Shown here: positions 14,120 to 24,355 of the stretch, piece by piece
How positions within the stretch are numbered: the first letter of the stretch is position 1
Layout of the letters: each line of letters opens with the position of its first letter
DNA from: Bdellovibrionales bacterium GWB1_55_8
GTDB lineage: Bacteria; Bdellovibrionota; UBA1018
Assembly (NCBI GenBank): GCA_001769835.1
Contig: MEPR01000039.1
Span: 56,101-120,100 of the forward strand
Length of the DNA: 64,000 nucleotides
Direction: 5' to 3'
Position numbers and translations under genes: made by a program
Notes under the pieces: generated by a model
Database searches by the model: none
Told to the model about the DNA's origin: nothing
The model's input: the letters and a program-made list of their open reading frames with translations, nothing else

Positions 14120-14584
14120 ATGTGGCAATCCCCCAATCAACGAGTCCGTGCGATCGCGAATTCAAAAAAACGCGAACGAGAAAGACTTCAGCAGCAATTT
14201 CACCTGAGAAGGGTTTCAGTGAGCCTGAAACTCGAACCGGCAGCCAGTGCGCCGCCAGACGCGCCCGCGGAGGCTATTACCCTCCTGGCGCGCGCTGTAT
14301 TGAACGATCTCAGCCCGCAGGGCATTGGCCTCTTTGTCTCGCAGCAACTCACCTCTGGCGAGATCCTGAGCCTGACGATCCATGGACATAAGCCACTCGA
14401 GGTGCGCGGCCGAGTCGTGGCATCTCAGGAGTTCGACAACGGAAGCCATATCCTGTCGCAGCAACACTTCACCTGCCGCGTCGGCATCCAGTTCATCTTC
14501 GACTCGCCCGAAAAAGAGCGCGAAGTAAAGGAATATTGCCAGTCGATTGCAGGCGAGCTGCTGGGCGGAAAAGCGGCGGCCTGA
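14120..14584 (+). CDS. PilZ-domain (c-di-GMP-binding) protein convergent with fliA
   Basis: 154 aa with an RxxxR-type motif (RERERLQQQFHLRR) and a D/NxSxxG motif (NDLSPQGIGL). Confidence 0.6.
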   Translation: MWQSPNQRVRAIANSKKRERERLQQQFHLRRVSVSLKLEPAASAPPDAPAEAITLLARAVLNDLSPQGIGLFVSQQLTSGEILSLTIHGHKPLEVRGRVVASQEFDNGSHILSQQHFTCRVGIQFIFDSPEKEREVKEYCQSIAGELLGGKAAA

Positions 14585-14586
14585 TA

Positions 14587-15648
14587 TCAACCCAGAAGCG
14601 TACTGACTTCGTCCCAATGTCCGCGCAGCTTTGATTTCAACCTGAGAATGGCCTGCGTATGCAGCTGGCTCACGCGTGACTCCGTCACGTCGAGGACCTT
14701 GCCGATTTCCTTCAGGTTCAGATCCTCGTAATAATAAAGCGAAAGCACGAGACGCTGTTTTTCGGGAAGATCCCTGATTGAATCGGCGATCATGCGCTTG
14801 ATCGAAGCCAGCGTCACTTCGCTGAAGGGCGTCGGAACTTTCGAACCGTTCTCACCCGCTCCGTGAAGCAGCCGCTTATCGGATTTCGAGAAGTTCAGGA
14901 TGTCATCATAGGAAAGAAGCGAGACGCTCCGGACCTGATTGAGCAGATCGTGATACTCGTCCTGCGTGATCTTGAGCTCCTCGCAGACTTCCTCATCAGT
15001 TGCCTGCCGGCCTTTCTGCTGTTCGATCTTGTTGTAGCAACGTTCGAGCAGTTTCGCCTTTTCGCGAACCGAACGCGGTACCCAGTCCTGCGCGCGAAGT
15101 TCGTCGAGAATGGCCCCGCGGATACGGAATTCAGCGTAGGTTTTGAATTTGTTGTCGCGATTCGAATCGTATTTCTCGATCGCGTCCATCAGCCCGATCA
15201 CTCCGGAGCTCATCAGGTCATCGAGTTCGATGTTCGCGGGCAGGCGCGCCGCTATTTTCTGCGCGATATATTTGATCAGCGGCGCATATTCCAGCACGAG
15301 CCTCTCGCGTGTGCTGTTGACAGGAGACAAATCCTCCTTCACCAGCTGCGCGGTTTGCGAAGCTTCACGCTCAAGCTCGGCCGCGATCTCTTTCTGCAGC
15401 TCGGCTTCCTCGCGCGCGGCTTCCTCTGCCGCCTTCGCGGCTTCCGCCGCTTCGCTCAGCGCCTGCTCTTCCGCTTTTGAAGTCTTGGTGCCCTTCGCAG
15501 GCGTTTTCGCCTTACCGGGCTTCGGTTTTTCCGGCGTTACAGCCGCAACCGCCTCGACTTCAGCGGCCTTCTTGGCTTTCTGCTCGCCCTTTGGCTCGCT
15601 TTTCCGCGCCGTATCCCGATACTTTTGAATTCCCTGGTTCAGCCTCAT
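14587..15648 (-). CDS. fliA: Flagellar sigma factor sigma-28 (FliA) with an unusual ~100-aa K/A/E-rich N-terminal extension
   Basis: C-terminal 250 aa carry sigma-70 regions 2-4 (…YAPLIKYIAQKIAARL…GVIGLMDAIEKYD…KFKTYAEFRIRGAILDELR…LSLYYYEDLNLKEIGKVLDVTESRVSQLHTQAILRLK). Last gene of the flagellar array after flhF and flhG. Confidence 0.8.
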   Translation of the reverse strand: MRLNQGIQKYRDTARKSEPKGEQKAKKAAEVEAVAAVTPEKPKPGKAKTPAKGTKTSKAEEQALSEAAEAAKAAEEAAREEAELQKEIAAELEREASQTAQLVKEDLSPVNSTRERLVLEYAPLIKYIAQKIAARLPANIELDDLMSSGVIGLMDAIEKYDSNRDNKFKTYAEFRIRGAILDELRAQDWVPRSVREKAKLLERCYNKIEQQKGRQATDEEVCEELKITQDEYHDLLNQVRSVSLLSYDDILNFSKSDKRLLHGAGENGSKVPTPFSEVTLASIKRMIADSIRDLPEKQRLVLSLYYYEDLNLKEIGKVLDVTESRVSQLHTQAILRLKSKLRGHWDEVSTLLG

Positions 15649-16574
15649 GCCTTTACCTCGCCCAACAGGATTCGCCAGAATCCTGTTTTATTGCCTGGCG
15701 CTGATCGCGCCGGTTCTTCCCTAAACCGACTTGGTGGGAGCCGTCTTTTGGTTACGATCCGTTCAGCATCAAATCCTGATTCTGATCCGGACCCCGTTCC
15801 CATTCTCGTTCCCCTGAGATACCGACCTAAAAACCTTTTGGCCAGTAACTCGAAGCAACGAACCGACAAAGCTCCTGACTCCAAGTCTAACAGAATTTTT
15901 CGATTCCTCACGGCCTGCGAAAATTTTTCATCACGTCCGCAATGCCCAAGGTACTCGAGCTCAACTCCTGAAATTCTCTCCGCATTCGCCTTAAGACTTC
16001 TGAACAACTTCTGCGCCTCAGCGCCATCTCGCGCTTGATTAACGATAACACCGGCTTGCAACCTTCCCAGGCGCGCTTTCAGATGGCCGATTCGCGAACA
16101 GGCTTCCGCCACTGACGTCGGCCGCGGCGTCAAGACAATGACGTACTCCGCCTTCAGGGCCTCGCAAATTTTCGAGTGTTCCTCGGCCTGAGCAGATCCT
16201 CCGGAACCCAGATCAAGAAACGCCACTTCAGCGCAACCTGCCTTCGCGGTAAGACTGCTTTCATCGGCCCTTTCAATGGCGGGCACCAGCCATAAATCCT
16301 GCTCGATTTCGTAGACAGGCTCGTTACTCAGAAAAGGCCCGGCGCCGAACGCATCGATCAGACTCACGCGCGGATTCTTCTCCAGCTCGACCGCAGCCAC
16401 CTTCCATCCAGAACGAGCCAGAATGGCGGCGATATTGGCCAGAACCGAACTTGTGCCCGCGCCTGGCCCTGAGCCGGCGAATGCAAGGACCCGCGCACTG
16501 CGGGTATCCGAGTCCGATTTCGGCCGCTCGCGCATCAGCCTGCGAAGCGTTTCAGCCTGATCCCCCACTTCCAT
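15645..16574 (-). CDS. flhG: MinD/ParA-family flagellar number regulator FlhG (FleN/YlxH-like) with a degenerate Walker A
   Basis: 309 aa immediately downstream of flhF, with a MinD-like fold. The P-loop reads AFAGSGPGAGTSSV where KGGxGK[ST] is expected, so both lysines are missing. Confidence 0.65.
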   Translation of the reverse strand: MEVGDQAETLRRLMRERPKSDSDTRSARVLAFAGSGPGAGTSSVLANIAAILARSGWKVAAVELEKNPRVSLIDAFGAGPFLSNEPVYEIEQDLWLVPAIERADESSLTAKAGCAEVAFLDLGSGGSAQAEEHSKICEALKAEYVIVLTPRPTSVAEACSRIGHLKARLGRLQAGVIVNQARDGAEAQKLFRSLKANAERISGVELEYLGHCGRDEKFSQAVRNRKILLDLESGALSVRCFELLAKRFLGRYLRGTRMGTGSGSESGFDAERIVTKRRLPPSRFREEPARSAPGNKTGFWRILLGEVKA

Positions 16575-16595: not shown

Positions 16596-18032
16596 TTAGA
16601 AATTCATGATCAATGCAGCCACACGTTCACGAGACGCCTCTTCGATGTCCTCCGGAACTCGCTGACCTGTCGTGAAATAAAGAAGCGGGAGCTTGGCCTT
16701 TTGCGAAACATTGTAAACCGCGCCGTAAACGGTGGTCTCATCCAGCTTCGAAACGATGATTCCCTGCGGTCGAAACAATGCGAACCGATGGGTGGTTTCG
16801 TAGAGCTCCGTATCCCGCGTCGTCGCGGAAAGGACGAGATGCGTTCGAACGTTCGGCACCGCGCTCAGCAGATCATGCATCTCTTTCAAAGTGCCTGCAT
16901 CGCGCTGTGAACGCCCGGCGGTATCGATCAAGACAAGATCGAGCGATTGAAAATCCTGGATTGCGATCCGAAGCTCCTCGAGCGTGCCGACCGAACGAAA
17001 AGGAACGTTCAGAATTTTCGCGTAAGTGCCAAGCTGGTCGAAAGCGGCTACTTTATAGCTGTCCAGATTGATCAAACCGACTTTCAGGTTACGCTTCAAC
17101 AATCCTTCACTGGCAATCTTGGCGACCGTGGTGGTCTTGCCCACTCCCGTCGGTCCCACCATCGCGATCACGACGGGTCCATTCTCACGCTGGCCGGCTT
17201 CAATTCCGCTCAACGGCGAGAGCACCTCGGTGCTGTCCATGAGTTCCATGGCAAGCTGATCCGTGACTGCGTCGAGGCTATTCGCGTTCTCTGAACCTGT
17301 CTGCGCGGCTGCCTTGCGCACCAAGGCCAACGCGTAACGGCGATCCACTCCGCTCACGATCAGCTGCTCAAAAGCGTCCTGTAGTGCCGGCGTACCAAGC
17401 GCCTCGGAACCCATGAGCGACTGAGCACCCGTAACCGCCGGAGCTTCCTCCTCCTTGGTTTTCATCTCGTGAATCATCGCCTTCAGGTTCCGCAGCTCTT
17501 CCTCAAGCGACATTCGCTCGCGACTTGCGGAATCCAGACGGCCGGTAGCGGCGTTGGCCAGTGAAGCGGAGTTCTTGTTCGCCACCGCGGCACTCGTCGC
17601 CGTGGCAGGGGCTTCGGGTGAATCGATGTCGATGTATCGCGTTGCCGTGATGCTCTTCTTCTGGGCTGTTGCGGCAGCCTGTTGCTGCGGGAGCTTTTTC
17701 GCGCCGCCGCTCAACTGGACGCGATCTTTCGTGTTCTTCGCGCGATCCATGTGCCGTTCAGTGTATTTGTCGTAGAGCTCAGCTTGTTTTTGCGCGCCCA
17801 TTTTCCCCACTGCGGTCTTGCTCTGAGCGGGAAGCCGGGTTTCCACAAAGGTCTTCTTCGAAAGTGAGCGCTCCGACACGGCCGCCGTCACTTCGACCGA
17901 TGGTTTCGACATCAGGCCGAATCCCCGCTTATTCCTTTTCGTCTGCAGGATGATGGCTTCCGGACCCAGCTCGCGCTTGATCGTATCGAGGGCTTCTTGA
18001 ATAGTCGGGGCTTCGAATTTCTTAACTTGCAT
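16596..18032 (-). CDS. flhF: Flagellar SRP-type GTPase FlhF
   Basis: Conserved N-terminus MQVKKFEAPTIQEALDTIKRELGPEAIIL. GTPase motifs VIAMVGPTGVGKTTTVAKIA, DTAGR and TKLDET-like (SKLDETT). Confidence 0.85.
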   Translation of the reverse strand: MQVKKFEAPTIQEALDTIKRELGPEAIILQTKRNKRGFGLMSKPSVEVTAAVSERSLSKKTFVETRLPAQSKTAVGKMGAQKQAELYDKYTERHMDRAKNTKDRVQLSGGAKKLPQQQAAATAQKKSITATRYIDIDSPEAPATATSAAVANKNSASLANAATGRLDSASRERMSLEEELRNLKAMIHEMKTKEEEAPAVTGAQSLMGSEALGTPALQDAFEQLIVSGVDRRYALALVRKAAAQTGSENANSLDAVTDQLAMELMDSTEVLSPLSGIEAGQRENGPVVIAMVGPTGVGKTTTVAKIASEGLLKRNLKVGLINLDSYKVAAFDQLGTYAKILNVPFRSVGTLEELRIAIQDFQSLDLVLIDTAGRSQRDAGTLKEMHDLLSAVPNVRTHLVLSATTRDTELYETTHRFALFRPQGIIVSKLDETTVYGAVYNVSQKAKLPLLYFTTGQRVPEDIEEASRERVAALIMNF

Positions 18033-22316: not shown

Positions 22317-23105
22317 TTAACCGAAGCTCTTGACCAGACTTCCGACCACGAGCTCCCACCCGTCCACCAGGACGAACAAGAGAAGTTTGAACGGAAGCGA
22401 GATCACCACAGGCGGCAGCATCATCATGCCCATCGCCATCAGGACGCTAGCAACGACCATATCAAGGACGAGAAACGGCAGATAAAGCATGAAGCCGATC
22501 TGAAAAGCCGTTTTCAATTCACTGATCACGAAAGCGGGAATCAGCACATAAGTCGGGACGTCATCGCGATTCTGAGGCTTTGCTTCCTTGGAGAGGGAAA
22601 GAAACAGCTCGAGATCCTTTTCCCGCGTCTGCGAGAACATGAATTCCCTGAGCGGCGCCTCGGCCCTTTCGTACGCGACGGACTGTGTGATTTTCTCGTT
22701 CATGAAAGGCTCGACCGCGTTCGCGGAAATCGCCTTCCACGTCGGGGCCATGACAAAGAACGAAAGAAAAAGCGAGAGGCCGACAATCAGCTGATTGGGC
22801 GGCATCTGCTGGGTTCCAAGCGCGTGTCGCACGAAGCTGAGCACCACGACAATGCGAGTGAACGAGGTCATCATGATCAGGATGGCCGGTGCCAGCGAAA
22901 GCACCGTCAGCATCATGATGATCCGAAGCACCGACACAACGTCAGTGGGTTTCTGATTGTCAGCGAAAGACAGGCTCAACGAAGGAAGAGAGAGCCCGGA
23001 AGTTCCAGGAATATAGCCGCCCCCGCCGGTGCCCTCGGCAAATGCCGGAACCGCCGCGAGGAGAAGCAGAAAGCCTGAAAGAAACGCCAGGCGCGAGCCT
23101 CTCAT
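22317..23105 (-). CDS. fliP: Flagellar export protein FliP
   Basis: 262 aa with a signal peptide and conserved FliP motifs (…[17 protein letters not shown]…, …[29 protein letters not shown]…). Confidence 0.9.
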
Positions 23106-24355
23106 AATTGTTTCAGCCCTTCCAGACGGCTTTTGATCCGCGCGCGCACGTCCGAATCATTCACGCGCGCCGCATGGGCCGCCGCTTGCGTTGCCACAGG
23201 CGCTGTCTTTTGAATCGAAGGCTTACGCGCCTCCGACCTGAGTACATCCGAAAAATCCACCTGCGTGGCGCTTACGCCTTTCGCGGTGGTCGCGGCCAGA
23301 AGTGCCGAAGCAGCGCTACTCTGTACCTGACGCGCGTCGGCCTTGGCCTGTTGGGCGGTGCCGAGCTTCCGGGCCTCGGGTTCAGCGATACGGAGTCCGA
23401 GATCCTCGAGGTCTGAAATTTCCATATTGAGGGACGACTCGCCGGAATCCGCGCCCAGCTGGGTGATCAGATTGATGGATTCCTCGGTTATGCCAAGGAC
23501 CATCGTCCGGCCGGCAACGCGCACGACCGCAATGCTTTTCTTCGGACCAAGATAATGATTCGAGAGAACCTCGATCATCTTCTTCTTTCCGATGCCGTTT
23601 TTCGCCAGGCGATTCAGGATGGGATTGCCACGAAGAAACTTTCTGAAACCGAAAGCGACTGCCCCGAGCAGAGCGATGATCGCAGCGAGTTTTCCAAAGA
23701 CCCTGAACGGACTGGGCAGAGGTTTGCCGCCAGTCAGCTGTTTCGTCGCGCCGGCCTTCGAATCCTGACGCATCACCTTCTCAAGAAGCTTTTTCTGTTC
23801 CGGATCATTGATCTGGACCGAGTCCGCGGTGCGCGTATCGCTATCGATCTTCGCAACGCCCGCTTTACGCGGCTCGCTCCTGGCTTCGATCGGCTTGGCC
23901 GCCGTTGCCGCGACACGATCCACGGTGATTCCGTTCGTCAGGCGAACGGTGAGAATTTTGCCGTTGGGGACGATCTCGATCCGATCCTTGTAATCCTCCG
24001 CATTGCCCTTCACGGAAAGACGGCATCTCACGAGTTTCGGCGTGTACTGATACGCGAAGATCTTGGTGAGATTTCCTCCGTTCACGGAAGAGATCTTCGC
24101 CGGATACACGGAAGTATCCGACAAGCTGATCTGGACGATGTCCTTGAAGAACTCGGCCTGGATCTGTTTTTTGTTTATCTTTCCGTCAAACAGCAAATCC
24201 ACCTGGGATCCGCCGGAAACCTGCACCTGCTTCAAACCAAGCAGGGTTGCACCCGCTTCATTGGCCCCAAACAGCGCCACAAGCAGCAGGCCCGAGAAGA
24301 TTCCCGTGAATGCTCTGAAATTCGTTATGCCCCTCATTTTCGCCTTCCTTGGCAC
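23102..24355 (-). CDS. FliO/FliZ-like flagellar biosynthesis protein, enlarged to 417 aa
   Basis: Occupies the fliO slot between fliN and fliP. An internal TM ([15 protein letters not shown]) is followed by a FliO-like segment (…[41 protein letters not shown]…). Extra N-terminal signal/TM plus an ~180-aa domain, and an A/Q-rich C-terminal tail. Confidence 0.5.

Follow-up and report, generated by a model that had tools for sequence, protein, structure and literature searches.

A probable pseudo-ATPase FlhG in a Bdellovibrionota flagellar operon that may still act on FlhF

Can a FlhG protein that no longer handles ATP still take part in setting flagellar number? Current models describe FlhF (a GTPase) and FlhG (an ATPase) as a two-nucleotide switch. 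In the established model, ATP-bound FlhG dimerizes and binds the membrane via its C-terminal helix, and the glutamine of its N-terminal DQAxxLR helix is co-catalytic: it stimulates the FlhF dimer to hydrolyze GTP and turns FlhF off (PMC12826062). The question is raised by a FlhG orthologue, here called FlhG*, that is encoded in a 64,000-nucleotide (nt) stretch of contig MEPR01000039.1 (the window, meaning the whole stretch that was analyzed). The identical 309-amino-acid (aa) protein carries a hypothetical annotation only, in the metagenome-assembled genome "Bdellovibrionales bacterium GWB1_55_8." We consider it fairly probable that FlhG* is a FlhG orthologue that does without ATP binding, ATP hydrolysis, or an ATP-driven monomer/dimer switch and that survives as a working activator of FlhF. 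The coordinates of all features are collected in Table 1.

FlhG* occupies the FlhG slot of its operon, since flhF comes before it, fliA follows it, and the flagellar operon around them is intact (gene order, flhA-flhF-flhG*-fliA). The spacing between flhF and the downstream flhG* is 21 nt, a Shine-Dalgarno-like AAAGGGGGG lies ahead of the flhG* ATG, and by direct reading the TGA of flhG* and the ATG of fliA overlap as ATGA. A consensus scan of the region found no sigma-70-like promoter, and terminator-like sites across the same region were not above shuffle level. Among Pfam models, the protein matched CbiA only (E = 8.5e-6; 26.2 bits versus a cutoff of 25.4). Models that recognize its canonical relatives, ParA and AAA_31 among them, failed with FlhG*, and the NCBIfam model minD_bact gave 16.9 versus 212.9. 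The best PDB sequence matches found with HMMER were Geobacillus FlhG (4rz2; 5e-8) and Pseudomonas FleN (5j1j). An AlphaFold2 (AF2) model built from a family alignment has the MinD/ParA-type alpha/beta fold of the FlhG family (predicted local distance difference test [pLDDT] score, 80.3; predicted template modeling [pTM] score, 0.75). A Foldseek search with this model placed FlhG 4rz2 at the top (5.6e-15), followed by FleN 5j1j, with BcsQ and MinD behind. Its descent, its place in the operon, its fold, and its enhancer helix all make FlhG* a FlhG orthologue. An earlier reading of this DNA, made from the sequence alone (the sequence-only reading), had called the gene a FlhG/FleN homologue, and synteny, fold, and the best PDB matches all agree with that assignment. 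We also searched the window, although not the rest of the genome, for a second MinD/ParA paralogue; with three canonical relatives as phmmer queries against all 517 open reading frames (ORFs) of at least 60 aa, only the flhG* ORF was matched, and this candidate was rejected.

The nucleotide site of FlhG* is degenerate in two motifs. Residues 34 to 42 (GSGPGAGTS) aligned to SGKGGVGKS in four alignments (HMMER versus the PDB, two MAFFT alignments, and hmmalign to a canonical-relative profile), with the changes K to G36, G to P37, and K to T41; G38, G40, and S42 are retained. The sequence-only reading had reported the loss of both Walker A lysines, the signature lysine to proline and the P-loop lysine to threonine. 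All four alignments bear out the double loss and Thr41, and the proline turned out to be off by one position: the signature lysine corresponds to Gly36, and Pro37 replaces the next glycine. That reading covered Walker A only, and to it we add the loss of switch I. Both switch I aspartates have become glutamates, about 14 residues are deleted, and none of the eight conserved columns survives (columns counted as conserved when at least 90% conserved in 31 canonical relatives). A second deletion has removed the CPWEMD segment that precedes Walker B. The Walker B/switch II aspartate is present as D121. Over the whole alignment, FlhG* retained 3 of the 18 conserved columns in Walker A and switch I, compared to 48 of the 79 conserved columns elsewhere (P = 0.0012 by Fisher's test). 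It thus has neither the deviant Walker A KGGxGK[ST] nor the switch I aspartates (DxD..GxxNxD), and by this defining chemistry it appears to fall outside the ParA/MinD ATPases. From these losses we infer, at the level of sequence, that FlhG* has lost ATP binding and hydrolysis; the earlier label of a probable pseudo-ATPase is backed by the loss of both lysines together with that of switch I.

Three trivial explanations for the altered site were rejected. An in-frame stop leaves room for at most 7 extra codons upstream, and the N-terminus of FlhG* aligns with the N-termini of its homologues, which speaks against a missed upstream start. A P-loop elsewhere in the protein was also rejected: the sole other G.K[ST] string, GNKT (residues 294 to 297), lies in the tail, and its lysine is not conserved. 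Against a sequencing or assembly error, three separate assembly records (ENA ERZ28564339, ENA ERZ27254732, and JGI 3300025030) encode a protein identical to FlhG*, although they may share reads; such an error is thus unlikely. The gene also carries many substitutions and in-frame deletions, with no frameshifts.

Other parts of the protein have been kept. Among canonical relatives, the mean identity was 71% in the enhancer helix, 62.5% in the nucleotide-binding N-terminal half, 59% in the C-terminal half, 34% in the membrane-helix region, and 46% in the tail. For FlhG* versus the same relatives, the corresponding values were 68%, 27%, 46%, 34%, and 55.5%. The conservation pattern is thus inverted relative to that of a normal ATPase, with the collapse confined to the nucleotide-binding half. 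The N-terminal DQAxxLR helix typical of the FlhG family is present (D5-Q6-A7-E8-T9-L10-R11), all eight of its clade-conserved columns are kept, and the AF2 model has a helix at residues 6 to 16. Residues 244 to 257 have the highest hydrophobic moment of the protein (0.8) and form the end of a modeled helix spanning residues 236 to 260. In a phmmer alignment, residues 108 to 257 of FlhG* matched residues 134 to 279 of 4rz2, a chain of 295 residues, so that the match runs toward its C terminus. A variable linker separates this MinD-like, putative membrane helix from the C-terminal tail (consensus, RFxEEPARxAPGNxxxFWRxLLGEVKA). The tail is the best-conserved segment, with 70 to 78% identity to relatives that are about 40% identical overall, and it occurs in canonical and degenerate forms alike. 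The comparison shows that FlhG* has selectively kept its enhancer helix, its membrane-helix region, and its tail.

Characterized FlhG/YlxH/FleN proteins (4RZ2 and 4RZ3 from Geobacillus and 5J1J from Pseudomonas) are MinD-type ATPases that regulate flagellar number and placement. FlhG* resembles them in its position between flhF and fliA, its fold, its DQAxxLR helix, and probably its C-terminal amphipathic helix. It differs in that both Walker A lysines and the whole of switch I are gone and in that the clade-specific tail adds about 50 aa. Because the lysines and switch I have been lost, the ATP-dependent dimer/membrane cycle of the model species presumably cannot run in FlhG* as it has been described.

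The sequence-only reading had proposed to look for the substitution in related taxa, and many Bdellovibrionota relatives are indeed degenerate in the same two motifs. Using a 7-sequence alignment, we found 26 related loci in species-representative genomes. flhG was adjacent to flhF in all 26, and fliA was found in 21; most of the others end too soon past flhG. A noncanonical Walker A was present in six Bdellovibrionota-type loci, and switch I was degenerate in every one of them. Among all retrieved proteins that bear DQAxxLR, 23 of 78 were without a canonical Walker A (e.g., SGRPGAGTT, SAQSGVGTT, GCRGGVGVS, and SALQGVGRT), although this sample is skewed to degenerate forms because the query, FlhG*, is itself degenerate. 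Nearly all of the 23 had a scrambled or deleted switch I. Many were shortened to 200 to 270 aa, with the helix kept and the FWRxLLGEV tail often kept. The DQAxxLR motif was retained in every degenerate relative examined. The degenerate representatives are all metagenome proteins. Canonical Bdellovibrionota-type FlhG proteins (P0002, P0003, and L001) share with FlhG* the clade, synteny, enhancer helix, RKILLD, DEK, and the FWRxLLGEVKA tail. They differ from it in having SGKGGVGKS and DGDFGLANLD intact and in the N-terminal half, where the identity drops from 62.5% among themselves to 27% with FlhG*.

The degeneration probably occurred more than once. On the concatenation of FlhF and FliA, a neighbor-joining (NJ) tree placed loci L004 ("Bdellovibrionales bacterium RIFOXYD1_FULL_55_31") and L005 (protein P0007) as the sister of the window lineage with 89% bootstrap support. 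The sister proteins have also lost both lysines, have an altered switch I, and keep the helix and tail, but their lesions are different. Their Walker A reads ASxTRA-GRSS, with a one-residue P-loop deletion and arginine at the position of the P-loop lysine, and their switch I has DGN (D to N) and a 4-aa insertion, compared to the deletion in FlhG*; the overall identity is 42 to 44%. Of 300 bootstrap replicates, only 1 grouped the four degenerate crown lineages as a clade, and two further degenerate lineages are basal. Walker A was therefore probably lost at least three times independently, a count that is based on an NJ tree of two proteins. An alternative topology from FlhF alone, in which the window and L011 are sisters that share the switch I deletion, was rejected, as it had 1.7% bootstrap support with FlhF plus FliA compared to the 89% for the window with L004. 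Degenerate FlhG also evolves faster: at FlhF identities of about 63 to 64%, FlhG identity was 54% in canonical pairs and 39% in canonical-degenerate pairs. Between the window and L004, FlhF is 70% identical and FlhG is 42% identical.

In P0117, a FlhG-like protein from the representative search, only the P-loop lysine is replaced by threonine (SGKGGVGTS) and switch I is fully intact (DADLGLANLD); the same degeneration may have only begun in this protein. P0066, P0071, and P0099, from the same search, combine DQAxGLR helices with Walker A-like strings (e.g., AGAQSGIGASS, ASAQAGLGATS, and GAPPDAGRSS) and are without the Bdellovibrionota tail. Walker-less FlhG-like proteins may thus also occur outside the Bdellovibrionota clade.

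We then considered whether flhG* still behaves as a functional gene. None of 20,000 gene shuffles gave an open frame of 309 codons by chance, and all length changes in flhG* are in frame. In the L004/L005 pair, we counted 42.5 synonymous and 10.5 nonsynonymous changes, giving a ratio of nonsynonymous to synonymous substitution rates (dN/dS) of 0.077 at a dS of 0.197. On the basis of this ratio, the Walker-less FlhG of the sister lineage is under strong purifying selection. The GC content at third codon positions (GC3) of flhG* is 0.565, compared to 0.66 to 0.72 in the neighboring genes, and GC2 (second positions) and GC3 together are flatter than in the neighbors. We rejected this flattening as a sign of pseudogenization, since GC3 is likewise lower than that of flhF in the canonical flhG genes of the clade and in the selected L004/L005 pair. 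By these measures, flhG* lacks the appearance of a pseudogene in decay.

What FlhG* does is suggested by the parts that it keeps. The helix is intact, the G1, G3, G4, and G5 motifs of the window FlhF are intact, and an amphipathic helix is present; FlhG* is therefore, as far as sequences can tell, most likely an ATP-independent activator of the FlhF GTPase and a negative regulator. Its DQAxxLR helix would dock into the FlhF dimer, stimulate GTP hydrolysis, and so restrain flagellar assembly. The MinD-fold body would be a mere scaffold for the amphipathic membrane helix and the conserved tail. Activity would be set by how much protein is made or by a tail-binding partner, replacing the ATP cycle, and dosage could be controlled through the cotranscription and coupled translation of flhG in the flhF-flhG-fliA unit. 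Both the continued action on FlhF and this mode of control are what we infer from the conserved parts. The sequence-only reading had instead suggested that control was possibly offloaded to the adjacent FlhF or to the PilZ proteins. The kept DQAxxLR helix suggests that the link to FlhF was probably retained, and for a move of control to the neighboring PilZ protein, adjacency is the sole argument.

Several points weigh against FlhG* being an ATP-free activator. Walker A mutants of Vibrio FlhG lose ATPase activity, localization at the pole, and negative regulation, and the cells are hyperflagellated (PMC7226244); since such mutants are nonfunctional, a working FlhG without ATP would need a different logic. 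How much the helix matters in vivo is debated even in the model species, because the Vibrio Q9A helix mutant regained a normal flagellar number once its expression was restored. Selection on the window gene itself is not measurable, as FlhG* is alone in its 50% cluster and its nearest relative is 44% identical (exhaustive search of 1.84 billion representatives). G38, G40, and S42 are also kept, as are Asp121 of Walker B and the invariant Asn179, which makes weak nucleotide or anion binding possible.

The last point leads to the alternative that survives best, although we regard it as unlikely. FlhG* could still bind and perhaps hydrolyze nucleotide through a noncanonical site to which other parts of the fold contribute basic residues, and run an altered ATP switch. 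Besides the residues listed above, the degenerate relatives retain the shape S-x-x-x-G-x-G-x-[ST][ST], and several have arginine at the position of the P-loop lysine. Some family members also carry key lysines elsewhere in the sequence, according to a review (PMC11407121). The McdA-type proteins discussed there resemble FlhG* in having a ParA/MinD fold and a Walker A that departs from KGGxxK[ST], but they are active ATPases in which the key lysine is supplied from elsewhere. In FlhG*, by comparison, the P-loop lysine is gone as well, a deletion has taken switch I, and we see no conserved substitute. The relatives do not converge on a replacement either: the P-loop position is Thr in FlhG* and varies among Thr, Val, Ala, and Arg in the others, with no new consensus, and almost all degenerate proteins have a switch I, including both aspartates, that is either deleted or scrambled, differently by lineage. 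With 27% versus 62.5% identity, constraint on the whole nucleotide-binding half has been lost, which is the pattern expected of a lost function and not of a relocated catalytic residue.

Slightly less likely still is that FlhG* has been repurposed as an adaptor whose tail binds a C-ring, polar-landmark, or transcription partner, with stimulation of FlhF being secondary or lost. This would fit the high conservation (70 to 78%) and clade specificity of the tail, and FliM retains an N-terminal LTQSEVDALL peptide. Work on Geobacillus and Shewanella reportedly found that FlhG binds an N-terminal FliM/FliY peptide in other species, which LTQSEVDALL resembles. The tail, however, is also found in canonical, ATPase-competent relatives and is thus no innovation tied to the loss, and the degenerate lineages L016 and L018 are without the tail but have kept the helix. 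The presence of DQAxxLR throughout the degenerate relatives examined points to continued contact with FlhF. Finally, it is improbable, more so than either of these, that flhG* is a young pseudogene with a frame that is still open and that flagellar number is set without any FlhG: the gene does evolve faster than its neighbors (42% for FlhG versus 70% for FlhF between the window and L004), in-frame deletions have taken parts of the core, GC2 and GC3 are flatter, and many degenerate relatives are shorter (200 to 270 aa), but the 309 codons are open with all changes in frame, the helix, membrane-helix region, and tail are conserved at the canonical level, the degenerate state is probably older than the split between the window lineage and L004/L005, with full-length genes in both lines, the sister-line dN/dS is low, the low GC3 relative to flhF is not diagnostic, and the flhG* stop is coupled to fliA.

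The reading of FlhG* as an ATP-independent FlhF activator bears on the family as a whole. Judged from the alignments, this probable pseudo-ATPase is one case of a trend that recurs in Bdellovibrionota and had gone unremarked. Full-text literature searches returned no account of a naturally Walker-less or pseudo-ATPase FlhG or of FlhG function in Bdellovibrionota, and the searched passages of a 2025 review of FlhF/FlhG diversification do not mention a Walker-less FlhG. Only tentatively do we extend this to the proposal that FlhG has dropped its ATPase engine repeatedly and independently in a large part of Bdellovibrionota, with the FlhF-activating helix always kept. If this is true, the core function of FlhG would be that of an FlhF GTPase activator, and the ATP-driven membrane/dimer cycle would be an optional layer that is dispensable for whole lineages. 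Flagellar number in these lineages would then be controlled by FlhG dosage or by partners of the clade-specific tail. FlhG* and its degenerate relatives, which seem to stay under selection without the ATP site and conserve only the enhancer helix, C-terminal half, and tail, can be viewed as a natural separation-of-function experiment that reveals which parts of FlhG are indispensable in evolution, and they offer a direct test of whether activation of the FlhF GTPase alone is enough to control flagellar number. The Walker-less group would also be a clear prokaryotic case of a pseudoenzyme emerging repeatedly inside one protein family. Such a FlhG would surprise specialists of the FlhF/FlhG field and opens a clear hypothesis to testing, but the basis is entirely sequence inference from uncultured organisms.

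Table 1. Features of flhG* and its flanking genes in the window, with residue numbers referring to FlhG*
Feature	Position	Strand	Description	Evidence
flhF	16596..18032	-	Signal recognition particle (SRP)-type GTPase; presumed target of the enhancer helix	TIGR03499, E = 6.6e-59
flhG*	15645..16574	-	309-aa FlhG orthologue with degenerate nucleotide site; stop codon 15645..15647	ORF, Pfam, PDB matches, AF2
Enhancer helix, residues 4-17, GDQAETLRRLMRER	16524..16565	-	DQAxxLR motif	
Degenerate Walker A, residues 33-43, AGSGPGAGTSS	16446..16478	-	ASGKGGVGKSC in relatives	
Switch I remnant, residues 62-67, VELEKN	16374..16391	-	VDGDFGLANLD in relatives	
Walker B/switch II, residues 118-126, AFLDLGSGG	16197..16223	-	D121, G123, and G125 kept	
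TPRPTS, residues 149-154	16113..16130	-	TPEPTS in relatives; C-terminal half of core; T149 invariant across alignment	
Amphipathic basic helix, residues 244-257, LAKRFLGRYLRGTR	15804..15845	-	Likely membrane-targeting sequence	
C-terminal tail, residues 283-309, RFREEPARSAPGNKTGFWRILLGEVKA	15648..15728	-	Clade specific; low pLDDT; short helix at 297-303	
fliA (sigma-28)	14587..15648	-	Start overlaps flhG* stop	FliA/WhiG TIGR02479, E = 9.7e-80

The FlhF of the window has DSYK as its G2 motif (around LINLDSYKVAAFDQL). The G2 arginine is a catalytic residue of SRP-type GTPases. G2 was D[ST]YK in every Bdellovibrionota-type locus (L001 to L018 and L021), with canonical and degenerate FlhG alike, and it contained arginine in the outgroup loci from Bacillota, Desulfobulbaceae, Spirochaetales, and Silvanigrellales (DTYR, DCYR, DNYR, and DSLR). 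The active site of FlhF in the Bdellovibrionota-type clade may therefore be unusual itself.

Upstream of flhF, the minus strand also carries flhA, flhB, fliR, fliP, fliO, fliM, fliL, flgE, flgD, and fliK. The FliO homologue (positions 23102 to 24355, minus strand) is unusually long at 417 aa; its FliO domain covers residues 253 to 306 only, and the N-terminal part is without annotation. Just downstream of the flhF-flhG-fliA unit and convergent to fliA lies a gene for a single-domain PilZ protein of 154 aa (positions 14120 to 14584, plus strand; PF07238, E = 7.4e-10), a possible cyclic di-GMP input to motility. FliA is 353 aa long, and about 110 aa at its N-terminus (residues 1 to 110), ahead of sigma region 2, form an extension in which Lys, Ala, Glu, and Pro are abundant. 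The FliA-matching ORFs of related loci are comparably long, and the N-terminal extension seems to be typical of the clade.

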